Below, in pieces: positions 1 to 50,741 of a stretch of DNA of 53,138 bases (within the stretch, counting starts at the first letter, position 1; each line of letters begins with the position of its first letter). The DNA is from a virus (Duplodnaviria > Caudoviricetes). Position numbers and translations under genes: made by a program. The notes under the pieces were generated by a model. It was not told the DNA's origin. It saw only the letters and a program-made list of their open reading frames with translations, and did no database searches. The stretch covers positions 1 to 53,138 of IMG/VR virus record IMGVR_UViG_3300032753_000038. One strand, 5' to 3'.

Positions 1-109
1 TCATGTAGAAACCAAGTATTTTACCAGGTACTTCTAGAACAGCATTACCTAACCATTTGACAGCATCCCATATACCTTTACCTATAGTCATGTAGAAACC
101 AAGTATTTT
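1..109. repeat. 22-nt direct repeat with an 87-nt period inside the tape-measure gene
   Basis: TCATGTAGAAACCAAGTATTTT at 1-22 and 88-109, encoding KILGFYM twice. Confidence 0.9.
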
Positions 110-2461
110 CTTTGGTACAAAAAGAACTATATTTGTTAATTTAGATACACCATCCCAAATAGAACTAGCAATATCACCAAGACCTCCAACCATATCAGAC
201 CCTATGTCGGCTATCTCTGTCCAATTTTCAAAAATTCCATATGCTGCACCTAGTGCTCCTCCAACGCCTGCACCAACTGGTCCTAAGATAGCGCCCGTCA
301 TTGCACCTTGCAATGCGCTAGATCCTATACCAGTAACCGCTGCTAATTTTTCATGACCTGATTCTTTTAAACTGTCAGTCACATGGTCTAGTATCAAACC
401 TCCAACTAACCCGCCAATGCCTTTTGAGAGCCCTTTACCAACAGTAGCTATATTCTTTAGAGAAAATATGTTCTTCAGCATACCTTCTCCAAATTTTGGC
501 ATCTGTAAAGAGCTAGGCATCTTAGGCATGCTGAGACTTTTCATAGTGAGCGGGGATTTTAAGAATGATGTTGATCCCGTAATACCTGTTTTTAATAAAG
601 GCAATGTGTTAGCCAATAGCCCAAAGATAGATGTTACATTTTTTATGCCTTTTGCTAGTAAATAAAAACCCCCTACTACCATTGCATTGGCAGCTACAAA
701 CTTTATTATTGATCCTGTGCCGCCAATAATAGATTTACTAAAATCTGGTAAAGCATTGTATAACGAAGTAAACCAACCTGATATTGTTTTCACTATTGAA
801 AGTTCAGAGAACCATTCAAATACATCTTTTATTCCAGTTCCTAAACTAGAGAATATATTTTCAACTATTTCAATACCGCTACCTAATAACTCAAAATCCC
901 AAGCTAAAGTATTAATTACTGGTATCACAATAGGATCTATTACGTCTACAACTAAATTCATAAATGTTTCTTCAAGCCGTGTCATAGATGTGTTGAGTCT
1001 ATCGCTTACAGCTTTTGCATTTTTTACTCTAGATTTGGCATCATTCTCTTCTTTCTTTCTAAGAATTCTAGCAGCTAGACTAGCATCGGTAATATCCAAA
1101 TGGCTTTTCATATATGCATCAACAGCAGCTTTGTTGGCAGTCAAGTATTCTTTATCTGATTCTTCGTCCTTTTGTCGTCTTTCTTCTATACTTGCTTGAG
1201 TTTTATCGAATTCGGTCTCAAATTCTCTAACTACATTTGCAGTATCTTTATATGAACTCACTTGACTACTTCCAAGCATATTCATCAATGCTCTACTATT
1301 ATCTAATGATTTTCCAAATGCTGTAACGCTTTTAGTAACACCTACACCAGTTTTCATAGACTGGAATAACTGCATCATAGCTGAATTTATTTCAGGTGAC
1401 ATTGCAGCCATGTTCTTAAAGTTTTCATCTAATCCTGCAACTCCAAGATTTAAATATCCAGCAAAATTTTTAGCTATTCTAGTAGATAATTCAGGTCCAA
1501 ACATTCCTGCTATTTGAGGTTGCACATTTTTAAAAATATCAGATAGCCCAAATTGCTTCATTGTTTGATTAATATCTGGCATTTGCATCACATCTTTAGT
1601 AGACTTAACTATCTCTTCTCTAGATCTACCAGTTAATTCTACAATAGAGTTGACATTTTTATAAAATTCAGTTGCTGATCTTGATACATCATTGGCGCTC
1701 ATCCTTTGTAGGGCCCCTGATTGACGTTGAATATCAATATATTCCATTAATGCATCAGCTGCTTCAGCTTGTGTCATCATTAGATCTGCACCACTGCGTG
1801 TCATGTTATTGAAACTTTTTTGTACCTTAGCAAGACCTGTACTTCCAAAAGCTGCGAAACTCTGACTGTGCTTGTTCATAATTGCAGTGAAATCGTTGAT
1901 GCTCAGCCCACTTTCGCCAACCATAGCATTCATTTGCTTGAGGCCGCCTGAATAAACAACACCACTCTTATAGCTTTCAATATAAGTGTCTGTGAGCGTC
2001 ATAGCTTCTTTATAAAGACCACCAAATGCCCCAATAACTAATCCTATCTCAGGTAACAATGTAGTAAATGAAAGTTCTAAACCTTTAGTAGCATAATGAA
2101 ATAGATTAACGCCGCTGACTATTCCTCCTATTATAGAATGAGGATCACCAGCAGAAAATGACGACCTCAAAGTAGAACCAAAAGAACCTACACCTTTTAT
2201 TATATCTAAGCTATTCTTATTGAGGGTACCTAATAATTTACTTAGAAGAGCCCTAGTTTCACTATTTTCAGAACTTGTATCTGATACTACCGTTCGTATG
2301 CCATCATTAAGTTCTCTAAGTTCGTCCTGCGTTAATTTAGTTTCAGTAGCAATAGATTTTAATGCTATTGCGGATTTGGTAGCTTCGCTAGTTAATCTAT
2401 TCAGGGTAACTTCTTGTGCCCACGTCTTAGACTGATCAAAATCTATCTTAGTTTCTGCCAT
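1..2461 (-). CDS. Tail tape-measure protein, partial (runs off the left edge)
   Basis: ATG at 2461 reads MAETKIDFDQSKTWAQEVTLNRL. The same frame is open at the left edge (KWLGNAVLEVPGKILGFYM); I spot-checked it rather than translating every codon. Helical Ala/Gly/Leu-rich sequence with an 87-nt (29-aa) repeat. It sits divergent from baseplate hub genes. It is missing from the ORF track because it is incomplete. Confidence 0.75.
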   Translation of the reverse strand, partial: MAETKIDFDQSKTWAQEVTLNRLTSEATKSAIALKSIATETKLTQDELRELNDGIRTVVSDTSSENSETRALLSKLLGTLNKNSLDIIKGVGSFGSTLRSSFSAGDPHSIIGGIVSGVNLFHYATKGLELSFTTLLPEIGLVIGAFGGLYKEAMTLTDTYIESYKSGVVYSGGLKQMNAMVGESGLSINDFTAIMNKHSQSFAAFGSTGLAKVQKSFNNMTRSGADLMMTQAEAADALMEYIDIQRQSGALQRMSANDVSRSATEFYKNVNSIVELTGRSREEIVKSTKDVMQMPDINQTMKQFGLSDIFKNVQPQIAGMFGPELSTRIAKNFAGYLNLGVAGLDENFKNMAAMSPEINSAMMQLFQSMKTGVGVTKSVTAFGKSLDNSRALMNMLGSSQVSSYKDTANVVREFETEFDKTQASIEERRQKDEESDKEYLTANKAAVDAYMKSHLDITDASLAARILRKKEENDAKSRVKNAKAVSDRLNTSMTRLEETFMNLVVDVIDPIVIPVINTLAWDFELLGSGIEIVENIFSSLGTGIKDVFEWFSELSIVKTISGWFTSLYNALPDFSKSIIGGTGSIIKFVAANAMVVGGFYLLAKGIKNVTSIFGLLANTLPLLKTGITGSTSFLKSPLTMKSLSMPKMPSSLQMPKFGEGMLKNIFSLKNIATVGKGLSKGIGGLVGGLILDHVTDSLKESGHEKLAAVTGIGSSALQGAMTGAILGPVGAGVGGALGAAYGIFENWTEIADIGSDMVGGLGDIASSIWDGVSKLTNIVLFVPKKILGFYMTIGKGIWDAVKWLGNAVLEVPGKILGFYM

Positions 2462-2502
2462 CTATTTCCACCAATGCTTATCAAACCAGTAATTTTTGAG
2501 GT

Positions 2503-2508
2503 TAAATA
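2503..2508 (+). promoter_or_regulatory. Putative late promoter core (TAAATA) for the gp26-like gene
   Basis: Matches the core of the T4 late promoter TATAAATA, about 50 nt upstream of the ATG at 2557. Confidence 0.5.
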
Positions 2509-2536
2509 CATTTAGAACCGCAATCACTGTTCAGAT

Positions 2537-2544
2537 TATTTATA
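2537..2544 (-). promoter_or_regulatory. T4-type late promoter TATAAATA for the tape-measure gene
   Basis: Plus-strand TATTTATA is an exact TATAAATA on the minus strand, upstream of the ATG at 2461. Confidence 0.65.
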
Positions 2545-2556
2545 GGAGCTATAAAC

Positions 2557-3408
2557 ATGAGTGATAATCCTCTCAAGAGGTACTTCAGACAGCCAAGTAC
2601 GTATCTAAGGTTACCTACCTTAGGTCGTTGGTATAACAAAAATGATGTACAAACTAACGAAGAAGGTGAGTTACCTGTCTATGGGCTGAGTGCGATAGAT
2701 GATATTATGCTTAATACTCCGGATGCTATGCTAAATGGTAAAGCATTAGAAAACGTTATTAAAAACTGTGTACCCGACGTAAAAGATGTTAAGAAACTGC
2801 TAACACCAGATATGGAAGCTATATTTGTTGGCATAAAGATGGGTACTACAGGTGGCAAGTTTGATATCGATCGCAAATGTCCTCATTGCGGCCATGAGAA
2901 TACTTTTGAAATCATTTGTTCACACGTACTAGATACAATGTCATACGTTGAAGATTCGGATACTGTAGTGGCATTTGATGCAGATTTAGAAGTACATATA
3001 AAGCCATACAGTTTTGAAATGCGTCACATGTTTATTCAGCGTCAGTTTGAAGAAGAACGTGCATTAAAGCTTATAGATGAACAGAATAAGAATATGGACG
3101 AGTTAACCAAAGCTAAGATCATAGCTGAAAGCATAGAAAAGATGACTCGCATAACATTTGAGCTAGTCAGTCGAAGTATAGAAAATATTAGATTGATAAA
3201 ACAAAACATAACTGTAACAGATCCCGCACAGTTAAATGAATGGTTAGTAAATATCACAAAGAATCAAGCAGACAAAGTAATAGAAGCTGTTAATAAGCTT
3301 AATGAAGTAGGAGTTAACAAGAAAACTCAAGCTGTCTGTCAAAAATGTGGTAAAGATTGGGAAGAAACTATGAGTTTTGATCCAATAAGTTTTTTCGGCA
3401 AACGTTGA
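2557..3408 (+). CDS. Baseplate hub assembly protein, T4 gp26-like
   Basis: NPLKRYFRQPSTYLRLPT N-terminus, D..MLNTPDAMLNG motif, two CxxC pairs (CPHC, CQKC), C-terminal SFFG. AGGAG Shine-Dalgarno. Next to the tape-measure gene. Confidence 0.75.
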   Translation: MSDNPLKRYFRQPSTYLRLPTLGRWYNKNDVQTNEEGELPVYGLSAIDDIMLNTPDAMLNGKALENVIKNCVPDVKDVKKLLTPDMEAIFVGIKMGTTGGKFDIDRKCPHCGHENTFEIICSHVLDTMSYVEDSDTVVAFDADLEVHIKPYSFEMRHMFIQRQFEEERALKLIDEQNKNMDELTKAKIIAESIEKMTRITFELVSRSIENIRLIKQNITVTDPAQLNEWLVNITKNQADKVIEAVNKLNEVGVNKKTQAVCQKCGKDWEETMSFDPISFFGKR

Positions 3409-3629
3409 TGACCTTAGATCCTGTTTTGATACAAAATATGCTTGATGTGATGGATCGAAACAGGAAGATCATCAACGAGGACATAGCTACATTGGTATAT
3501 TACATGAACGGTGGTCTCGATTATAATGATGCTTGGCTTCTAACTGTTGATCAACGCAAACAAATGGCTAACATCATAGAGAAACATTTTGAAAATATGA
3601 ACGGTAGTAAGAATACTAGACTGATTTAA
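3405..3629 (+). CDS. Baseplate hub assembly chaperone, T4 gp51-like
   Basis: 74 aa overlapping the gp26-like stop. LVYYMNGGLDYNDAWLLTVDQR resembles the gp51-type motif, and the gene order matches gp26-gp51. Confidence 0.6.
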   Translation: MMTLDPVLIQNMLDVMDRNRKIINEDIATLVYYMNGGLDYNDAWLLTVDQRKQMANIIEKHFENMNGSKNTRLI

Positions 3630-3686
3630 TTTTTAGTCAGAACTATAAGATTTAAAAGTTTTTCAATATTTTTATTTTGATTTGTG

Positions 3687-3770
3687 TGATGAGTGCTTTT
3701 AGCACTCATCAGTTAATTGATTCATTTTCAACTCGTTATCACTCGTTTCAATTCATCAATTAACTTTTTT
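3687..3770. terminator. Two adjacent hairpins followed by a T-run: terminator and/or 3' end of the minus-strand RNA
   Basis: 11-bp stems at 3687-3697/3701-3711 and 3711-3721/3755-3765, then TTTTTT. Confidence 0.5.
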
Positions 3771-4260
3771 CTTACAACTTGTTTTATTGATTATTCTGAA
3801 AGATCTGCGGTCATACGACTCCCCTTGCGGGGAGTATGAACTAAAGATCATTCTGATGAGTCTTTGGGTCATGCCGCGACACCTCAGCATTTGCATGCAA
3901 GCTGGCGGAACGCCTATTTCCAGCTGATCAAGTGTTACACTCAGGGGATCTAACCCCTACGTTCGGTCACGGATTGATTACCGCACTGCACAATCGTCGC
4001 ACGGCATTACACGGCAATTGTGTATTGTAGACGTCAAGAAATGACTATCTACAATCCTTTCTTCTGTTTTTCTGGACTAGGGCGGTACAGATTATTATCC
4101 CTAGCGTGAGTGTGATAACCTGTTCGTTATCCTTTCACGGGTAGTAACTTACTACCATATTTGAGCCAGTATGAAGTAGTCTTTGATTCTATAATAAAGG
4201 GGAAATTTAAAAGCCTCGTATGGTGCCTAATACTGTGTGTTTAGCCTAAGTGTATTATAG
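3690..4260 (-). ncRNA. Candidate large, multi-helix non-coding RNA
   Basis: No ORF in the track. More GC-rich than its flanks, with about ten consecutive stems. The stem at 3818-3835 closes a GCAA (GNRA) tetraloop on the minus strand. Boundaries are approximate. Confidence 0.65.
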
Positions 4261-4265
4261 ATCCC

Positions 4266-4562
4266 TCAAATTGAGAGATAACTGTTTATGATGTCTTCTA
4301 GTCTTTCACTGGGTTCGCTCAGCATGCGCAGGCTTACATCTTGCCATAGCTTCTGCCTCTGCTCATCAGTAATATTACTATATGTTTCTGAGACATAATT
4401 GTCAAATAATTCTCTCATACTTACGCAAGAACTTGCAGGAGTACCTATATGAAAATCAGGTATCTTCCTTGCTGCTTGAAAACTAGATCGACCTTTTGTT
4501 GCTGCCTTTGGCACACTTGGCTTAGCCTCTTGCGGGAAGAATTTCTTAACTTTTTGTTCCAT
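4266..4562 (-). CDS. Hypothetical protein (98 aa; basic N-half, helical acidic C-half)
   Basis: ATG start with a purine-rich upstream sequence (AGAGAGAAG). Co-oriented with its neighbours. No recognised motif. Confidence 0.55.
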   Translation of the reverse strand: MEQKVKKFFPQEAKPSVPKAATKGRSSFQAARKIPDFHIGTPASSCVSMRELFDNYVSETYSNITDEQRQKLWQDVSLRMLSEPSERLEDIINSYLSI

Positions 4563-4640
4563 GATGTTTGACTTCTCTCTGCGTTTACTATAAAATAATG
4601 ATGTTGATGCTTTGAGCCGGCATTAACGTTGTAGCCTTGG

Positions 4641-4667
4641 ACCGGAACTGCGCCTAACAGTTCCGGT
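4641..4667. repeat. Perfect 10-bp inverted repeat just after the TnpB-like stop codon
   Basis: ACCGGAACTG-7 nt-CAGTTCCGGT. The T-run lies on the plus-strand 3' side. Confidence 0.85.
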
Positions 4668-4673
4668 TTTTTC

Positions 4674-5489
4674 TTATGCTGCACGTCGCTTGATTCTTTT
4701 AGTTGAAGTGTTTGTCATTTCAACTAGATCCAAAAGATAACGACCTGATCCTTCCTTTACAGTTACTAACCACGGTGTATTTTCGTCGGGTATCATACCT
4801 GGCTTCTGCCTAATAATGATATGATCGTGAGGTTGCTTGGTTAGATCGTGTCCTTCTACTGTTATGGATATAGAAGAATACGGTATCTTGATCACAGTAG
4901 ACCTATTCTGTTGATCATATGATATATCCGTTAGATCCTTAGATAATTGCAAATGTCTCTTATGCAGATTATCAAACGGTTGTAACATCTGCAACGGAGA
5001 TCTCATTTGTCCAGTAGAACTTTCGTCAGCATCTGCTATCTGTTTAGCTTGGGGCTGTACCCAACGCAAAACTTCAGCGGCTATTGATCTGCGAACAAGC
5101 AGATGCAAAATAGCTTTGGATGCAGCAATATCAATCAACATCATGGTTCTATCATTGATTAACAGCTTCTTACCGTCAGTAATCGTGTCTCTATACAGTC
5201 TCAATGGTTCTGGCCACTCAGATGCATCTTTTACAATTAATGTACGTAGATCGCAGCTAGTTTGTGCTACAGCTAGCCAAATTCTCTCCATCTGATCTTT
5301 GATTCCATCAATCTCCTTGCAGAGTACTCGAATCTTACTGTTGAATCCGGTTACCAAACTGTTATAATATTTCAATTCCTGCTGCATGTATCCATGTAGA
5401 TACCTTTTGGTATTATTGTCTAGATTGATACGATATGAACGCTCCCAATTCTTATGAGAGTTTAAATGACCTTGATCATTTTTGAACAT
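4674..5489 (-). CDS. Hypothetical protein resembling the TnpB/Cas12 N-terminal WED+REC region, with no RuvC or zinc finger
   Basis: N-terminal RSYRINLDNNTKRYLHGYMQQELKYYNSLV parallels the TnpB strand-helix ending in ..RFVYN. C-terminal VIKIPYSSISITVEG...HIIIRQ...WLVTV parallels the TnpB WED strands. The ORF ends before any RuvC-I GxDxG motif. The ORF is solid; the family call is by eye. Confidence 0.5.
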   Translation of the reverse strand: MFKNDQGHLNSHKNWERSYRINLDNNTKRYLHGYMQQELKYYNSLVTGFNSKIRVLCKEIDGIKDQMERIWLAVAQTSCDLRTLIVKDASEWPEPLRLYRDTITDGKKLLINDRTMMLIDIAASKAILHLLVRRSIAAEVLRWVQPQAKQIADADESSTGQMRSPLQMLQPFDNLHKRHLQLSKDLTDISYDQQNRSTVIKIPYSSISITVEGHDLTKQPHDHIIIRQKPGMIPDENTPWLVTVKEGSGRYLLDLVEMTNTSTKRIKRRAA

Positions 5490-5519
5490 CTAGCTTAACT
5501 CCTATCGAACATAGTCTTA

Positions 5520-5549
5520 TGTATAGCGCATTTATATAATATGTGTCAA
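5520..5549 (-). promoter_or_regulatory. Possible sigma70-type promoter for the TnpB-like gene
   Basis: TTGACA (5549-5544), 18 nt, TATACA (5525-5520). Confidence 0.4.
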
Positions 5550-6064
5550 GGTATCGATTTACCAAAGAAATGATCTTCCGGTAATCCTAACCAATCCTTT
5601 AGTTGATATATGTAATAATTTTTGTAACGAGCACAGTTAACACCGTCTATAGGTTCTGATAAGAACACTATCTCATCTACATTATTGTATTTCACTATCA
5701 ACACCATCTTTTTCTTGCTGGAATCTGCATCCTGTGCAGCTTGTTTCAACCAACTGTCCCATTGCGCAACAGAATGCGTTATAACTGATTTAAAGCTTGG
5801 TGGTGCTTTATAATGTTTACACTCTACGCTATAGGTAAAATTTCGAGGACAAATTAGATCTCCAAATACAGCATAATCCATGCTATATGATTCTGTTCGA
5901 ATTTGGTTGGTTCCGCCAAAGAAGGAACCACTATCTGGGTTCCTTCTAAATGAATTCTTGATACCTAATTTGTCTTGGAATCTATCACTCAATAGATTGG
6001 CTATCTTTCTTTCAAAAGTAGAACCTTTGTTTTTTCCATTCACACCCATGATAGTAGTTATCAC
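5546..6064 (-). CDS. Holliday junction resolvase, Hjc-like PD-(D/E)xK nuclease
   Basis: KNKGSTFERKIA, RNPDSG, GDL and VECK motifs. Directly downstream of gp46. Confidence 0.75.
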   Translation of the reverse strand: MITTIMGVNGKNKGSTFERKIANLLSDRFQDKLGIKNSFRRNPDSGSFFGGTNQIRTESYSMDYAVFGDLICPRNFTYSVECKHYKAPPSFKSVITHSVAQWDSWLKQAAQDADSSKKKMVLIVKYNNVDEIVFLSEPIDGVNCARYKNYYIYQLKDWLGLPEDHFFGKSIP

Positions 6065-7839
6065 TATAATGATTCATATGAATCACTAAACGTAGTGAAT
6101 CCACTTTCTTTTATAACCATAAGTACGTTGGAAACTCTATTCACTAGCTCCTCTCGATGTGATATCACAAACACGTTCTTGTTGCGTTCTCGTTCCATCT
6201 TCTTGAGCAACCCTATAGCTCCTTCTAACCCTGCTGGATCCATACCATTATCCAATAGCTCGTCTACAAATATTAGATCTATAGCAGTGTTGGTAGTTTC
6301 AAATATATCTCTGAAACTGAGACTCAATCCAAGTATCAATCTAGTACGCTCGCCTCTTGACAAGTTGTTGAAATCTAGATCTTGTCCCATAAAGGTAATT
6401 TCTGTAGTTAAATCATTTAGGAATTTGACTACGTGAGGCAGTCCAAGTTTGTCTAGATATTCTGCCAATCTCTTGTTGAGATAAGCTAGATTTTGATCAA
6501 CAATGCGTTTGCGGATGAAACTATCTTTGCTGGTCAACAACTTCAACAAGAATTCCTGATTTTCACGATCCTTAACCAATTGGTTTAGAACATCATAACT
6601 GACTTCCTGTAAAGTATCAGATAGTGTGTTAGCTTGCTCAACATATGGATTTGTAGATGATAATTCTTTATCAAGATCCTTGCGCAGTTGATCCAAAGTG
6701 TTTTTATGCTCTAGTGCTTCTTTGAGAGTTGGATAAAACACATTTGGTTTGCTCATGCTGTTGAATACAGGAAGCATATCATTAAGTTGTGCAGTTAGCT
6801 CTTCAAGTTCTGCCTTTTCAGCATTTACTTGAGAATCTAAATTGGCTATACGACTTTCTAAATCCTGCATGATATTCACATGCTTGTGATCTTTGATGCC
6901 TTGCCCACACATTGGACACGACTTGTCGCCTGCAGTCTTGTACTGCTTTAATAGGCTATCTAGTTGTGTATCTAACTGAGATACATGTCTAGTTTTGGTC
7001 TGTATTTCTCTATTGAACTGTGCGATGCCTGTGCTGAGTTCCTTGTATGTTTCAGCATTGCTGTGCGCAGCTAACTCTGTATCAATGTCAAGCTTTTCTA
7101 ACTGCTCAATTGCAGCTTCAATTGTAGCTATCTCTCGTACTCGATTATTATCCCAGTTCTCAACCTTGCGTTGAAACTCTTGTATAGTGTTTTGTATCTT
7201 CTCGTTAGAAGTCTTAACAGTTCGTATGCGGAATTCTTCACGCTCAATTTCAATTTTAGTAGTTTTGATCAATTCTTTTAGATTGTCAGCTTTCTTACTG
7301 AGATGAGTGATACCCAGCAACTCTTCTATGAGTTCTCGTTGTTTAGAAGCGCCTAGATCTAAAAATGGTTCTGTATAGGTATTCAGTGCTACTATATGTT
7401 TGAACAGGCTGTGGCTGAGACCAAATAGTCTTTCAATCTCAGCTTGTGTGTCTTTGTTTTCGCCTTGGGCTTCGTCAGTGTCTTGGCTTTTGACATGTTC
7501 GTCGTCTACTATATAACGAAAGAAGTTAGGCTTGCGACCACGTTCAATTCGATAGTTATGTCCGTTAACTTCAAACTCAATACTCACACTCATATTCTTC
7601 TGGTTTATCTTGTTAACTAGATTGTCCTTCTTGATGTTGGTAAGAGGGACACCATATAGTCCATAGCTTATGGCATTCAATATGGTTGACTTACCGACGC
7701 CATTGCGAGATCCATTTCCTCCCATATCTAGGTTATCGCCTAGTACTAGAGTCAATCCAGTTTTTTCTAAGTTGATGCTTTGTGTTACTGCACCAACACT
7801 CATAAAGTTCTTACAGGTTAAAGTTTTGATTTTTAACAT
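6064..7839 (-). CDS. Recombination exonuclease ATPase subunit (T4 gp46 / SbcC / Rad50-like)
   Basis: Walker A NGVGKS, coiled coil with a CPMC zinc hook, signature LSRGE, Walker B LIFVDE, ISH switch. Confidence 0.95.
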   Translation of the reverse strand: MLKIKTLTCKNFMSVGAVTQSINLEKTGLTLVLGDNLDMGGNGSRNGVGKSTILNAISYGLYGVPLTNIKKDNLVNKINQKNMSVSIEFEVNGHNYRIERGRKPNFFRYIVDDEHVKSQDTDEAQGENKDTQAEIERLFGLSHSLFKHIVALNTYTEPFLDLGASKQRELIEELLGITHLSKKADNLKELIKTTKIEIEREEFRIRTVKTSNEKIQNTIQEFQRKVENWDNNRVREIATIEAAIEQLEKLDIDTELAAHSNAETYKELSTGIAQFNREIQTKTRHVSQLDTQLDSLLKQYKTAGDKSCPMCGQGIKDHKHVNIMQDLESRIANLDSQVNAEKAELEELTAQLNDMLPVFNSMSKPNVFYPTLKEALEHKNTLDQLRKDLDKELSSTNPYVEQANTLSDTLQEVSYDVLNQLVKDRENQEFLLKLLTSKDSFIRKRIVDQNLAYLNKRLAEYLDKLGLPHVVKFLNDLTTEITFMGQDLDFNNLSRGERTRLILGLSLSFRDIFETTNTAIDLIFVDELLDNGMDPAGLEGAIGLLKKMERERNKNVFVISHREELVNRVSNVLMVIKESGFTTFSDSYESL

Positions 7840-7841
7840 TA

Positions 7842-8864
7842 TTACACGCTCTGATAAATTTTGATCAACTGCTGACGATCTATAGTATTTGATTCAATAC
7901 TTTTTAAGTGACTGATCACAATAGTATCGATACTTTCAAAATTTATATCTGCTGTTTCATCAACATCTAGATCGTTCAAATTTTTAGTGATCAGATGCAC
8001 ATCCTTACCTTTAAGCTCAGTCTCGAACATCTCCTTCATGAAGTTTGCTTCTTCATAATTGATGTCAACGTCTATTGTTATGCGTGCATATGTATGCTCA
8101 TCAATATACTTGCTTGGATCTGTTAGAACTTGACTCAATGTTAGTGTGCGGTATTTGGGTGCACCTGGATACGATTTAAAAGTTGGATCTATCCCAGGCT
8201 CCCACATCATAATGCCGCGATCGTCATCCCAAGCGTCTGAATAATCGTGTGGGAAACAATTACCTATGTACCATATAGTACCTTTGTTCTGCCGCTTGTG
8301 GAAATGCCCGCTGAACACTTGCTTTTGATTGGCAAAATGATCCTTGTTTAGCATACCATGATCTGGCATCTCTACCATAGCATTCATCTTGAAGCTTGGT
8401 AGTTCAAAATGCCCAAACATATATGGAGCTTTGATCTTCTGGATCTTCTTCCAATCATCTCCTACTAACCATGGAACAAATGCAACATCTCCTACTTCAG
8501 TTATTGAGTCTATTAGATGTATGTTTGAGAATTGATCAATGTAAGGGATACTGTGAATTTCGTACTTGTCTCGATAGAATAAATCGTGGTTACCCAACAA
8601 GAATACTACATTGTCAAAATAGTCGTTGAGCAGTTTTAAACCGCTGACTGAATAATTGAGAGTAGAAATGTTGATAGCGCTGCGAACATGATGCCAATCG
8701 CCACCAAATATACAGGTTTTGGTCCCCCAATCTTCTGCCTGCTCTATCATCCATTTGACAAAACCTTCGCAGGCAGAATTGTGATCTCGGCTGTTATTAC
8801 ACAGACCATAGTGAATGTCGGTAAACACCATAGTCTTTGAAAAATCTATATTTTTGAGCCCCAT
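7842..8864 (-). CDS. Recombination nuclease subunit (T4 gp47 / SbcD / Mre11-like)
   Basis: Metallophosphoesterase motifs DIH, GDWHH, GNHD, GHFE, SGHFH. Adjacent to gp46. Confidence 0.95.
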   Translation of the reverse strand: MGLKNIDFSKTMVFTDIHYGLCNNSRDHNSACEGFVKWMIEQAEDWGTKTCIFGGDWHHVRSAINISTLNYSVSGLKLLNDYFDNVVFLLGNHDLFYRDKYEIHSIPYIDQFSNIHLIDSITEVGDVAFVPWLVGDDWKKIQKIKAPYMFGHFELPSFKMNAMVEMPDHGMLNKDHFANQKQVFSGHFHKRQNKGTIWYIGNCFPHDYSDAWDDDRGIMMWEPGIDPTFKSYPGAPKYRTLTLSQVLTDPSKYIDEHTYARITIDVDINYEEANFMKEMFETELKGKDVHLITKNLNDLDVDETADINFESIDTIVISHLKSIESNTIDRQQLIKIYQSV

Positions 8865-8930: not shown

Positions 8931-10520
8931 TTACAGATTTTTTACCCATACAGCGTTTCCTGCATCATAAAATCTGTTGTAACCCATGTTTGTTGCAATT
9001 TCTATTTCTGTAGAACCAGGTGCTTTACCAATAATTTTGTGTTTCTGAAAAGACATTCTGCTTTTTATATCGTCTATATTTTTAAAATACCAATAGTTTG
9101 GTTTACTGAATCCTTTAAATTCAAATCCAGCTTGCTTGTATACATTACCCTGCCCCCAGCAGAGATCAGCGTATGTTATTAAGGTTGTTGGACCCAAAAT
9201 CAATTTTGCTGCATTGAGTAATTTAGACAAGTTACCTGCTATAGAAATGTCAGATTTATTAGCAAATCTTGTTAATTCGTATTCTGCTTTTTTACTGAAG
9301 CGATTTTTAGATATGGATATAACAGATACAAGGTCGTTGTTATAGAAAGCACCCCAGTGGTATTTAGACCTATGATAACCCTGTAAGTGGTATCGATTAA
9401 GAAAAGCTTTGGCTATTTCTGAGTCTATGACTTTTATATCACATTCTCTAGCACCAATTCTATTTTTAATTAAACCAAATGCATTTGTTAACCTATTTAA
9501 AATTATATTATGTTTATTGTTAAGATCGTGTTCCCATACTTGTATTAAGTTTAACCCTGCATCTTTAGCCATTTTGAATTTTTTAAAATGATAACTTCTA
9601 TCATTTAAAATTTTTTCAGAATGCCACCATATACCATTAAATTCTATAGCAATATGTTTAGAAGGTATTACAAAATCTAATTCAAATGGTTTAATAGTTT
9701 GGCGATCATTTTGAATAAACGGTATTTTGTGCTCTTCTAACCATTGCCTTATGATTCTCTCACCTGACGATTCTGACAATGGCGAACAATTAGGACATCT
9801 CACTCCGTCGTTGCGCAACTTTTGATTGAATTTTAGTTTACAAATATTACATTCCCACGGCCATTCTGTATCACTATCATTCTCTATATAATCAGTTAAT
9901 GTGAATAAATTTGTTGCAGTTGATCTAGCTGCGATAACAGCATCAAATTGCCTAATTCTAGTATTGATTCTAGCTTGTATTACATTTTCTTTTATATGCA
10001 TGCTATTTTCAACACCATAACGAGATAACATAGTTTCCTTCATTTTGGTTTGTATAACATCGCTCTGTGCAGGATGTTCTACTCCAAATTTTTTAAGATT
10101 GGTTTGTTTAACACTATTTTTAAACTCTTTTGTTTTGCTGTAATGTTCTTCTCCAAATTTTTCTATGGATGTTTGTTTAATTTTTTTTGCAAAATCAGTT
10201 GATTTACTATAATAATCAACTCCATATTTTTGTATATTGGTAGCTTTTATTTTGTCTTGACTATATAGAGCGGTGCATTTTCTGCTACAAAATTGTCTAT
10301 ATTCATTTTTATCTGGATGCCAAGAAAGAGTTTTACCACATTTGCATAGAGGTATAGGTAAATTATTGATTGCGTGCCATAATATTTGTCTGCAATTACT
10401 TATACCTAGAGACGATTTGATTTCAAGATAAACATCTTTGAAATCACTTTTCAATAAGTGATCAAATTTTAACTTTTTCCTTGCTAACAATTGCTCAGAT
10501 TCAAATATTAATAAATTCAT
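8931..10520 (-). CDS. Free-standing homing-endonuclease-like protein (Hef/Vsr-like PD-(D/E)xK nuclease) with N-terminal repeats and a C-terminal GNAT-like domain
   Basis: Four K.T..(Q/E/K/S)(K/R)(Y/F)G(V/E)(D/E) repeats, CxxC pairs and ELDFVIPSKHIAIEFNGIWWH. The C-terminus has FLNRYHLQG, ELTRFA and TYAD...GNVYKQAGF. Very AT-rich, inserted between conserved core genes. Confidence 0.7.
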   Translation of the reverse strand: MNLLIFESEQLLARKKLKFDHLLKSDFKDVYLEIKSSLGISNCRQILWHAINNLPIPLCKCGKTLSWHPDKNEYRQFCSRKCTALYSQDKIKATNIQKYGVDYYSKSTDFAKKIKQTSIEKFGEEHYSKTKEFKNSVKQTNLKKFGVEHPAQSDVIQTKMKETMLSRYGVENSMHIKENVIQARINTRIRQFDAVIAARSTATNLFTLTDYIENDSDTEWPWECNICKLKFNQKLRNDGVRCPNCSPLSESSGERIIRQWLEEHKIPFIQNDRQTIKPFELDFVIPSKHIAIEFNGIWWHSEKILNDRSYHFKKFKMAKDAGLNLIQVWEHDLNNKHNIILNRLTNAFGLIKNRIGARECDIKVIDSEIAKAFLNRYHLQGYHRSKYHWGAFYNNDLVSVISISKNRFSKKAEYELTRFANKSDISIAGNLSKLLNAAKLILGPTTLITYADLCWGQGNVYKQAGFEFKGFSKPNYWYFKNIDDIKSRMSFQKHKIIGKAPGSTEIEIATNMGYNRFYDAGNAVWVKNL

Positions 10521-49984: not shown

Positions 49985-50017
49985 AATTTCAACCCATTAT
50001 TACATAATATACTTGCC

Positions 50018-50046
50018 AATATATAGTCAACTACTTTAGAAGTCAA
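50018..50046 (-). promoter_or_regulatory. Sigma70-type promoter for the HNH gene
   Basis: TTGACT-17-TATATT on the minus strand. Confidence 0.5.
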
Positions 50047-50049
50047 TGA

Positions 50050-50110
50050 CATAAATATATTGTAGTCCACCGGACGGCAATCCGCGACTACTCTATGTCT
50101 TCAATGGAGA
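50050..50110 (+). promoter_or_regulatory. Late promoter (CATAAATA) followed by a structured leader
   Basis: GTAGTC/GACTAC and CGGA/TCCG stems at 50062-50091. TCTTC/GGAGA stem at 50098-50110 covers the SD. Confidence 0.6.
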
Positions 50111-50117
50111 TCACAGC

Positions 50118-50741
50118 ATGTGTATTTACTGCAAAACTGCAAATTATCGAAAAATATATGAGTTTCACTATGGACCTATTTCAACTGATGAAATGGGCAG
50201 AACATATGAGATACACCACATAGATGGAAATTGAAATAATAATGCACCTGACAATCTAATGCAGGTTAGTATGCAAGAACATTACAACATTCATTTCTCA
50301 CAAGGAGATTGGGCAGCATGTATACGTATAGCGGCCAAAATGGGGCTATCCCGCGAAATTATATCATCTGCAGCACGAACTCATCAGCTGAAAAGGATAG
50401 CAGAAGGTACTCATCCATTCTTAGACAGGGCACAATCTAAGGTATGGGCAGCGGATCGGGTATCGAGAGGCTTATGTGTTCTATCAGGAGGTGCTATACA
50501 CAGACGTAGGGTAGAAGAAGGTACTCATCCATTTTTAGGCGGAGAGATCCAACGCAAGAGCAATTCTAAACGCATTGCTGACGGATCTCATAATTTTCTT
50601 GGTAGCAAGAGTAACAATGATAGATTAACAAATGGTACTCATCCTAGTCAAAAGATGGACACTTGTGTACATTGCAATAAGACATTTAGCATATCAATGA
50701 TAAAACGTTGGCATAACGATAATTGCAAACGTAAAACATAA
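50118..50741 (+). pseudogene. HNH homing endonuclease with an in-frame TGA at 50232-50234
   Basis: MCIYCKTANYRKIYEFHYG...YEIHHIDGN*NNNAPDNLMQVSMQEHYNIH, in frame with ORF 50259-50741. C-terminal R...G(T/S)H(P/N) repeats and CVHC...WHNDNC. Confidence 0.8.

Follow-up and report, generated by a model that had tools for sequence, protein, structure and literature searches.

What occupies the long stretch without open reading frames (ORFs) at the junction between the replication genes and the baseplate genes of a T4-like phage, and does it work together with the proteins encoded beside it? This question is raised by the viral contig IMGVR_UViG_3300032753_000038 (53,138 bp, an estimated 12% of a genome), which was analysed as a whole and is called the window below; its gene content is T4-like according to Pfam and PHROG scans of the window proteins. 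On its minus strand, a 271-amino-acid (aa) ORF (4674–5489) is followed by a 98-aa ORF (4266–4562) and then by the ORF-free stretch. To the first part of the question the answer is nearly certain: from about 3686 to 4265, the minus strand holds a genuine non-coding RNA gene, which belongs to a previously uncatalogued family of ornate RNAs in giant (330–520 kb) T4-like phages from lake metagenomes. Because the protein encoded beside it has the shape of the RNA-binding half of TnpB/Cas12f, this RNA is a possible RNA part of a new nuclease-free RNA–protein machine. The new RNA family with its candidate protein partner is real, and its functional role is a proposal.

The initial annotation, which was made from the sequence alone, had singled out this region as the longest ORF-free stretch of the window, richer in GC than its flanks and starting right after the stop of the 98-aa ORF, and all three statements proved correct. 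The stretch without any ORF of 50–60 aa spans 3630–4265 (636 nt), the runner-up measuring 274 nt, and the ORF map places the RNA directly behind the stop codon of the 98-aa gene. The GC content is 0.52 at 3801–4000 compared with 0.26–0.39 around it (0.255 at 3601–3800 and 0.365–0.39 beyond 4100), and that of the RNA core defined below is 0.46, compared with 0.374 for the whole window. The minus strand of 3690–4260 has a minimum free energy (MFE) of −162.2 kcal/mol versus −129.5 ± 6.45 kcal/mol in 100 dinucleotide shuffles, none of which folds as well (z = −5.07), while the plus strand reaches z = −3.17; on this check, which had been named beforehand, the minus strand is therefore clearly better than its shuffles.

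The relatives of the region were collected in two ways. An alignment of relatives of the 271-aa protein fetched three viral and six metagenomic loci, and in all eight of these protein-fetched loci that have enough downstream DNA, a 98-aa gene is followed by a conserved non-coding region; single-sequence searches for loci with the 98-aa and 271-aa proteins returned none, whereas the alignment-based searches succeeded. A profile built from eight homologous downstream regions matches the window at 3693–4265 (envelope from 3686; E = 1.3e-150; found in L001, which is window 2190–5760). In addition, a degenerate 24-nt pattern of the most conserved box, located in the loop of helix P10, fetched 33 further viral loci, in 30 of which the sequence profile found the whole RNA. 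In genome contigs, the same pattern occurs at at least 120 loci, and none of 120 carries the RNA, the profile matching only 30–77 nt (mostly 30–40 nt) around the pattern; likewise, a blastn comparison of the region with 50,697 deposited phage records gave no match. After removal of duplicates, the RNA set comprised 21 distinct sequences, including 17 non-redundant ones that are 49–81% identical and keep the structure. Several carrier contigs are 216–519 kb long; terminal repeats are present in one of them (518,643 bp), and the completeness rating is 100% for two. Because the contigs reach 519 kb and some are complete, the carriers are giant T4-like phages; the sequencing runs containing the window DNA are labelled lake water metagenomes, and no RNA run is listed among them.

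Covariation among homologous regions, another check named beforehand, is strong. RNAalifold on the 17 cores gave 52 pairs, 36 of them with compensatory changes. A structure set by hand on an 11-sequence, 400-column MAFFT alignment (86 pairs, 931 cells) was compared with 500 shuffles and with slid partners. The results showed that 84.2% of the cells are paired, compared with 74.5 ± 0.7% in the shuffles (0/500 as high) and 37.8–44.6% with slid partners, and that 47 of the 86 pairs have changed on both sides, compared with 30.1 ± 2.8 in the shuffles, none of which reaches 47. The covariation score is 0.366, as against 0.171 for the shuffles and at most 0.115 for slid partners. Helices P5, P6, P8, P9, P10, and P13 are 97–100% paired with two to five pair types, while the low scores of P2, the inner part of P5, P11, and P12 arise because plain MAFFT misaligns these variable hairpins, the complementary arms of which are visible sequence by sequence. 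Furthermore, many G–U pairs are valid only on the minus strand (e.g., 18–34, GU in 5; 253–301, UG in 4), and because such pairs occur at many positions, the minus strand is the RNA strand.

These data bear directly on the possibility that there is no RNA gene here at all, the region being instead a protein-coding gene, either decayed or antisense, or else an element that acts as DNA, for example an origin or a packaging site. ORFs of 77–138 aa do run across the region on the opposite strand in GC-richer relatives, and the peptide VLHSGDLTPTFGHG recurs in two of them. However, the corresponding frame of the window is broken into 46 + 32 aa, the substitutions track base-pairing and not codons (the 47 pairs changed on both sides), and the G–U pairs make the signal strand-specific, with the plus strand folding worse. 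We regard this explanation as highly improbable.

The RNA gene (3686–4265, minus strand, as are all parts described here; no ORF of at least 50 aa) is made up of a 5′ leader, a 388-nt core with no fewer than 12 helices and one or more covarying pseudoknots, an A-rich linker that is hypervariable, and a pair of conserved 3′ hairpins. The core (3793–4180) runs from CAUACUGGC to AUCUUUCAGAAU, is common to all 17 non-redundant homologues, and is far better conserved between relatives than the leader and the linker. All eight stems listed in the initial annotation match helices conserved in the relatives, although one of them had to be redrawn, as noted below for P2.

The closing helix P1 (CAU/AUG) is tentative, having 3 bp and no change on both sides. 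The 5′ part of the core holds the hairpin P2 (GGUAGU/ACUACC; 4140–4156), which appears as GGUGG/CCACC, GGCAG/CUGCC, or GAUGG/CCAUC in relatives and scored 59% only because MAFFT misaligns its 3′ arm; the annotated form of this hairpin (4140–4147/4149–4156) would leave an impossible 1-nt loop, and the real arms are 4140–4145/4151–4156. P3 (4106–4138; annotated as 4105–4110/4134–4139 with an inner stem 4114–4119/4126–4131) is a two-part hairpin with an outer GUGA/UCAC and an inner GAUAAC/GUUAUC helix and conserved internal loops AAAGG and ACAC; it is 100% paired, but 9 of its 10 pairs never vary, and it therefore provides little covariation evidence either way. P4 (4099–4103/4078–4082; annotated as 4077–4082/4099–4104) is 85.5% paired with changes on both sides in three of five pairs, and its loop (4087–4090) may form a tentative pseudoknot, PK1, with 4064–4067, which is 68% paired and has four of four pairs changed on both sides. 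In the hairpin P5 (AUUGUAGA/UCUACAAU with an inner GUCA/UGAC; 4024–4055, annotated as 4024–4031/4048–4055 with inner 4033–4036/4042–4045), the six central pairs are paired in 11 of 11 sequences with two pair types each.

The 3′ part of the core begins with the hairpin P6 (CACAAU/AUUGUG; 3989–4022, annotated as 3988–3994/4017–4023), which encloses a variable insert and is 96.9% paired, with five of six pairs changed on both sides and up to four pair types. The short hairpin P7 (CGG/CCG; 3970–3983) is 100% paired, one of its three pairs covarying. The pseudoknot PK2 joins GAACG (3960–3964), in the invariant ACCGA stretch, to CGUUC (3908–3912) in the P10 loop; it is 100% paired in 11 sequences, has changes on both sides in three of five pairs, and exists in the variants AACG/CGUU, AGUG/CACU, AGUA/UACU, AAUG/CAUU, and AGCG/CGCU. 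P8 (AGGGG/CCCCU; 3943–3958, annotated as 3943–3947/3954–3958) is also 100% paired, with four of five pairs changed on both sides. P9 (CACUU/AGGUG; 3880–3934), which is 98.2% paired and covarying, encloses P10 and P11. P10 (3920–3924/3901–3905; annotated as 3900–3905/3920–3925) is 100% paired, covarying, and capped by a loop with the near-invariant GGAAAUAGGCGUUCCGCC, and P11 (3895–3898/3887–3890) is a variable hairpin that is misaligned (34%) and shows complementary arms in each sequence. The hairpin P12 (3844–3864), with an UCAUCAGAAU loop, is tentative (45.9% paired), its form differing among clades. The last helix, P13 (ACUCCCC-GCAA-GGGGAGU; 3818–3835, annotated as 3818–3824/3829–3835 with the GCAA loop), is 98.7% paired, and three of its seven pairs have changed on both sides. 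A CAGAA word was also seen three times in the core, as ACAGAAG (4063–4069), AUCAGAAU (3849–3856), and UUCAGAAU (3793–3800); the last two copies shift together from AUCAGAA to ACCAGAA in the clade that has no 271-aa protein, and the only complementary UCUG is in PK1. These repeated words may be a protein-binding site or may take part in alternative pairings.

Outside the core, the leader (4181–4265) is conserved among closer relatives only; its alignments show a GGCTC-type motif and, behind this, an A/T-rich TATAGAAT-like box, which, going by the sequence, may be the promoter of the RNA itself. The linker (3765–3792), directly 3′ of the scaffold, is 17–37 nt long across relatives and diverges with indels even between relatives with ~95% alike cores. 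H1 (3712–3764) is a long hairpin with the conserved internal loops GARAYGAG/CGANUYGAAA, and H2 (3687–3711) is the terminal hairpin (UGAUGAGUGC-UAAAA-GCACUCAUCA), with five of eight pairs showing compensatory changes; taken together, H1 and H2 have 23 pairs, 17 with compensatory changes in nine sequences. The inner module of H1 is present where both proteins are present, and loci with only a relative of the 98-aa protein (no 271-aa protein) have the outer stem alone. H2 is probably the 3′ end of the RNA or a terminator shared with the convergent gp51 operon, and neither strand has a U-run behind it. We discarded the idea that CUGAUGAG in H2 marks a hammerhead, since that motif forms one arm of the hairpin. 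By eye, H1/H2 (3687–3764) has UGAUGA and CUGA words and tandem G–A-rich internal loops that look box C/D- or kink-turn-like; the permissive Rfam scan described below gave no more than weak matches here (lactis-plasmid RNA, E 0.024; snoCD11, E 1.8).

Could such a structure be simply a long 3′ untranslated region (UTR) of the 271-aa/98-aa operon, that is, a processing or terminator region with a cis-regulatory or mRNA-stabilising role and not a separate RNA? It does begin at the upstream stop codon and end in hairpins at a convergent gene junction. On the other hand, a length of ~390 nt, with no fewer than 12 conserved helices plus a pseudoknot, goes far beyond a terminator or stabiliser, the RNA is kept whichever gene lies upstream (98-aa, 271-aa, or neither), it is better conserved than the flanking leader, and a promoter-like motif precedes it. 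The 3′ UTR explanation is thus quite improbable.

We also compared the region with known RNA families, since the initial annotation had proposed a ROOL/GOLLD-class RNA, a new class, or the partner RNA of the TnpB-like protein. Rfam 15 cmscan of the whole window gave no family at the gathering score, and a permissive scan of 3400–4700 (E ≤ 10) gave eight weak matches, none of them to ROOL, GOLLD, introns, RNase P, or tmRNA, so that all the families that were to be looked for by Infernal stayed unmatched. The best permissive match, to lactis-plasmid RNA, scored 29.6 bits against a gathering score of 70 and covers H1–H2 only. No family reached its gathering score in 11 related loci either, and ARAGORN found no tRNA or tmRNA in the window. 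Because nothing in Rfam 15 matches it, the RNA is not a ROOL, GOLLD, intron, RNase P, or tmRNA, and the ROOL/GOLLD option is not supported by either Rfam model. The chance that it is a diverged member of one of these families (ROOL, GOLLD, group I/II intron, RNase P, tmRNA) or of a catalogued omega RNA/HEARO-type motif is very slight, its size class and phage origin being all that points that way. In contrast, the new-class option is supported: the sequences form a family that is conserved, covaries strongly, and has no counterpart in Rfam. The RNA is undescribed in the full-text literature that we searched; supplementary tables, of which those of PMC10691335 on exapted TnpBs could bear on this point, lay outside the search.

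The third option, a partnership with the TnpB-like protein, requires a closer look at the 271-aa protein (4674–5489, minus strand). It has 16 relatives at 46–59% identity, all of 262–272 aa and without Pfam domains. Its AlphaFold model, made with 17 sequences (predicted local distance difference test, pLDDT, 83.9; predicted template-modelling score, pTM, 0.80), consists of one N-terminal strand, a helical domain (residues 25–156), and a six-stranded beta domain (179–245). In a structure search of the PDB, all 46 matches listed were Cas12f, Cas12k, Cas12n, Cas12p, Cas12o, Cas12g, CasLambda, TranC, or TnpB proteins (probability 1.00; template-modelling score, TM, 0.33–0.38), the best being CnCas12f1 (E 4e-4), with ISFba1 TnpB at 1.8e-2 and 8h1j TnpB at 6e-2. 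Among predicted viral structures, two family members came first, followed by 400–650-aa 'transposases' of giant viruses and phages, which would be of the TnpB/Fanzor type judging from their names, and by a 'Cas12f1-like TNB' protein. The ESM Atlas structure search placed two OrfB_IS605 clusters first, weakly (TM 0.35); a feature search of the same atlas returned unrelated eukaryotic and viral glycoprotein clusters, which were judged to be noise.

The model resembles the WED and REC structure of the TnpB/Cas12f superfamily, while the RuvC catalytic domain (D-E-D), the zinc-finger part, and profile membership are missing; the last WED strands are the end of the protein, at residue 271. When 1.84 billion representatives were searched with a profile, 199 relatives (clusters at 50% identity) were found, 181 of them at E ≤ 1e-10; among the 150 listed of the 199, lengths range from 97 to 345 aa, and because none exceeds 345 aa, these relatives have no RuvC half. 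The fold matches and these lengths together suggest a WED+REC lobe with nothing after it, and the predicted structure indeed looks like that lobe of TnpB/Cas12f, ending where RuvC would begin. At the sequence level, searches of the 271-aa protein against Pfam, PHROGs, and PDB sequence profiles gave no family, and no OrfB_IS605 or Cas12f1-like_TNB Pfam match; Pfam and PDB profile searches with all 23 family members gave noise only. No match was obtained by tblastn of three diverse family members against deposited phages, nor any locus by a protein-alignment search of genome contigs. RuvC-less TnpB-like proteins in T4-like phages are undescribed in the full-text literature that we searched, again with supplementary tables outside the search.

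The 98-aa gene (4266–4562, minus strand) stands between the 271-aa gene and the RNA in 10 of the 17 non-redundant loci. Its product has a basic disordered N-terminus and three C-terminal helices, no Pfam or PHROG family, and 16 homologues; a fold search of its model (pLDDT 75.5) against the PDB gave no meaningful neighbour (best E 3.2). The spacer upstream of it (4563–4673, minus strand) is conserved and contains an A-run, a covarying hairpin (4639–4669) of 9–13 bp with compensatory changes in 9 of 10 loci printed, and then a promoter-like GGCUCA ... UAUUAUGUA. In DNA terms, the motif GGCTCA ... TATTATGTA precedes the 98-aa gene in 9 of 10 loci printed. Judging from its sequence, the GGCUCA motif, which is seen again ahead of the RNA core, may serve as a promoter element specific to the phage. 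Read on the plus strand, the spacer hairpin has TTTTTT behind it and is scored as an intrinsic terminator of antisense transcripts.

A question raised from these findings is how tightly the RNA and the two proteins go together. Among the 17 non-redundant RNA loci, 10 have both proteins, four only a relative of the 98-aa protein, two only a relative of the 271-aa protein, and one neither; the lone 98-aa relatives are longer (115–120 aa), and the lone 271-aa relatives have 284–308 aa. Where the 98-aa gene is missing (L017 and the L036 group), the 271-aa homologue's stop codon is where the RNA starts, while in the window 111 nt and the 98-aa gene separate the two. Conversely, among 33 loci fetched by the 271-aa protein alone, 11 have the RNA according to nhmmer, one has a divergent copy, eight have a different conserved non-coding region of 0.7–0.9 kb, 10 have no RNA, and three are too short. 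A small 98-aa-like ORF lies between the 271-aa homologue and the ~70-aa ORF in L073 and L074, and a terminator hairpin is seen in L052, L055, and L063, which are protein loci without the RNA. These results show that the protein family is repeatedly, though not always, followed by a very large structured RNA, and that the RNA can persist without the protein.

The second non-coding region (L064:3802-4775, L068:3796-4700, L069:3844-4760, L071:3757-4670, L072:3757-4660, L075:3817-4790, and L076:3763-4680) sits behind 271-aa homologues of 26–29% identity on contigs of 416–465 kb and has two subtypes. For five of its sequences, RNAalifold gave 194 pairs, including 61 with compensatory changes; the region matches nothing in Rfam and is not detected by the RNA profile at E up to 10 with filters off. 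This region (L064, L068–L072, L075, and L076) is probably a larger RNA class serving the same protein family.

Overall, we favour, with a probability of about 0.45, the reading that the RNA is the core of a small nuclease-free ribonucleoprotein that comes from a TnpB/omega-RNA (OMEGA-type) module. The 271-aa protein, consisting of the WED and REC lobes only, would bind the enlarged RNA scaffold, possibly joined there by the basic 98-aa protein; in TnpB/Cas12f, these lobes hold the scaffold and read the target-adjacent motif as well as the heteroduplex. The particle would attach to a nucleic-acid target without cleaving it. The linker, as the variable segment on the 3′ side of the scaffold, would be the candidate specificity element; 3765–3792 is the only place for a TnpB-type 3′ guide and is a candidate only. 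The data themselves show how the RNA is conserved and folded, its strand, its gene neighbourhood, and the resemblance of the protein fold; the binding, the use of a guide, the target, and the descent from an omega RNA are what we infer. That the RNA is the partner of the TnpB-like protein, as the initial annotation had suggested, is plausible: the WED+REC-like fold and the position of its gene, on the same strand and just upstream, agree with it, while the RNA without the protein in a complete genome, the homologues without an adjacent RNA, and the failure to find a guide do not.

Several observations weigh against this ribonucleoprotein reading. First, the fold match of the model is modest (TM 0.33–0.38, best E 4e-4), and Pfam, PHROGs, and PDB profiles, all empty, give no sequence-level link of the 271-aa protein to TnpB. 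Second, the core of 388 nt is ~4 times as long as the TldR/TnpB scaffold (97 nt), and RuvC, absent here, forms much of the RNA-binding surface in TldR/TnpB (both according to PMC13622181). Third, the first 20 nt of the linker have no second match in the window, nor does an 18-mer have one in a complete relative of 452,799 bp. Fourth, RNA and effector do not consistently co-occur as expected of an omega RNA, with the RNA found without the protein in a complete genome and the protein without an adjacent RNA in 10 of 33 loci, where the sequence runs straight to the ~70-aa ORF and gp51 and leaves no room for the RNA. A profile search found no 271-aa homologue in any of five records of the classes that lack it, including the complete 518,643-bp genome with terminal repeats, while the same search found the protein in four of four control records; the 98-aa family is absent from three records (one 77% complete) and present in two of two controls. 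Finally, the clade without the 271-aa protein keeps its core ~95% conserved while the flanks have diverged.

Much of this evidence would suit an autonomous RNA of a new class, namely, a ribozyme, a ligand- or protein-binding scaffold, or a decoy of a host defence or RNA-binding protein, acting alone or with host factors, the 271-aa and 98-aa genes being accessory or mere neighbours in a variable gp46–gp51 slot. The RNA is the sole constant of that slot in the 17 non-redundant loci, no 271-aa homologue exists in the complete genome and no 98-aa homologue in the 77%-complete one, the core is under strong purifying selection in the clade without the 271-aa protein, and 10 of the 33 homologue loci have no adjacent RNA. 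Moreover, many invariant unpaired nucleotides (ACCGA, GAAAGGAU, GGAAAUAGG..CCGCC, and two UCAGAAU) together with the pseudoknot are typical of tertiary-structured RNAs. However, of the 30 protein-fetched loci that are informative, at least 12 have a protein resembling the RNA-binding lobes of TnpB/Cas12f directly 5′ of a large structured RNA and on its strand, which is hard to credit to chance, and the second, different large structured RNA behind eight distant homologues is likewise hard to see as chance; in addition, no ribozyme or riboswitch family in Rfam matches. We consider the autonomous RNA the main alternative, though less likely than not. With intact structure in lineages that have neither or only one of the two proteins, the RNA is a constant, selected component, and because it is retained there, at least part of its function is independent of the 271-aa protein.

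A broader proposal, which we consider unlikely on present evidence, is that RNA-centred machines exist in giant T4-like phages. In these, only the RNA/DNA-reading lobes of a TnpB/Cas12-type protein would be left, while the RNA would have grown to 0.4–0.9 kb and become indispensable, perhaps catalytic or target-selecting. If so, these would form a new branch of RNA-guided (or RNA-executed) systems with the protein as an optional cofactor, and at least two unrelated-looking RNA architectures would serve one protein family.

As for the setting, the RNA lies where a minus-strand replication/recombination block joins a plus-strand baseplate block. The minus-strand block includes, by Pfam and PHROG matches, a PDDEXK nuclease (5546–6064), the Rad50-like gp46 (6064–7839), and the calcineurin-type gp47 (7842–8864), which confirms these members of the gene order named in the initial annotation; beside gp47 stands a 529-aa homing/HNH-type endonuclease (8931–10520, minus strand; phrog_3339, E 2e-114). 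On the plus strand, the gp51-type baseplate hub protein is encoded at 2557–3408 (PF12322, phrog_150). A 74-aa ORF (MMTLDPVLIQNMLDVMDRNRK...; 3405–3629, plus strand) without Pfam or PHROG family overlaps the end of the gp51-like gene and is kept beside gp51 in most related loci printed, a counterpart of at least 70 aa not being seen in L003, L008, L011, L013, L031, L038, and L042. The slot around the 271-aa gene is a hotspot for mobile genes. Two relatives (L003:3783-4862; L022) have an insertion immediately upstream of the 271-aa gene, namely, a 340–359-aa ORF (MDNGHWIYPNDFN...NWFGFVYRI...) that looks GIY-YIG-like by eye. Elsewhere in the window, we noted an open-ended 820-aa ORF (2–2461, minus strand) without Pfam or PHROG match and the second-longest ORF-free stretch (49985–50258, 274 nt), which has no Rfam match in the whole-window scan.

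With these findings, the few ornate RNAs known from phages are joined by a large family of structured RNAs that is well supported, and the 271-aa family is a sizeable unannotated group (199 clusters at 50% identity) of TnpB/Cas12f-like proteins, with the nuclease half absent in the 150 listed. If the RNA and the protein work together, they would represent another case in which nature has domesticated the TnpB scaffold, here in lytic-type giant phages, without a nuclease and with an unusually large RNA; this would bear on the evolution of RNA-guided systems and offer a compact platform for binding DNA or RNA. Should the RNA work alone, it would be a new candidate ribozyme or decoy.

How, then, does this RNA compare with known systems? 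It resembles ROOL and GOLLD in size class (0.4–0.8 kb), phage origin, and the possession of many helices; it differs in matching neither Rfam model and in lying at the gp46–gp51 junction beside a TnpB-like protein, with no tRNA genes in the window, and, unlike them, it has a concrete candidate protein partner. The ~0.9-kb RNA shares its position relative to the protein and gp51, its giant phage contigs, and its strong covariation, and by eye an GGAAAnCUAGGC box and an CUCCCnnnnnGGGAG hairpin near the 3′ end resemble P10 and P13; it is, however, twice as long and a putative homologue at most. Cas12f, Cas12k, and Cas12n effectors use large multi-stem scaffolds with a pseudoknot, and these effectors are the best structural neighbours of the 271-aa protein (8hr5, 8j3r, 9j09, 8axb, 9n9c). 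In contrast to their single-guide RNA systems, there is no RuvC here, the RNA is larger, and the sequences are unrelated as far as Rfam tells; no CRISPR array or repeat was seen in reading the sequence, although no dedicated repeat search was made.

The closest comparison is with the omega RNA of TnpB and the guide RNA of TldR. In TldR/TnpB, REC and WED read the target-adjacent motif (TAM), while WED with RuvC holds the guide RNA scaffold; the oppF TldR uses a 97-nt scaffold with a 9-nt guide, and TnpB a guide of ~16 nt, at the 3′ end (PMC13622181). An RNA of this kind is expected to be encoded on the effector's strand, at the 3′ end of the effector gene or overlapping it, and to carry a 3′ guide of about 9–20 nt complementary to a target beside a TAM; here the RNA abuts the stop codon of the 271-aa homologue in loci without the 98-aa gene but is set apart in the window, and a hypervariable segment comes after the scaffold. 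The differences are several. An omega RNA goes with an effector that has WED, REC, RuvC, and zinc-finger (TNB) parts, and even TldR keeps a degenerate RuvC that binds the guide RNA (PMC13622181), whereas the 271-aa protein has neither RuvC nor zinc finger. The 98-aa gene is usually interposed here, the carriers are lytic-type giant T4-like phages and not insertion sequence (IS) elements, no Rfam family matches, and no guide–target pair or TAM was found when the linker was compared with the window and one complete relative. As to the scaffold, pseudoknotted and of ~100–250 nt in omega RNAs, a covarying pseudoknot (PK2) is present here in a core of 388 nt. Partial likenesses lie in the arrangement: the RNA is on the same strand, just 3′ of a TnpB-like WED+REC protein, and has a pseudoknotted scaffold followed by a variable 3′ segment. 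Its copies without the protein also have a parallel among TnpB systems, as stand-alone omega RNAs acting in trans are on record (PMC10691335).

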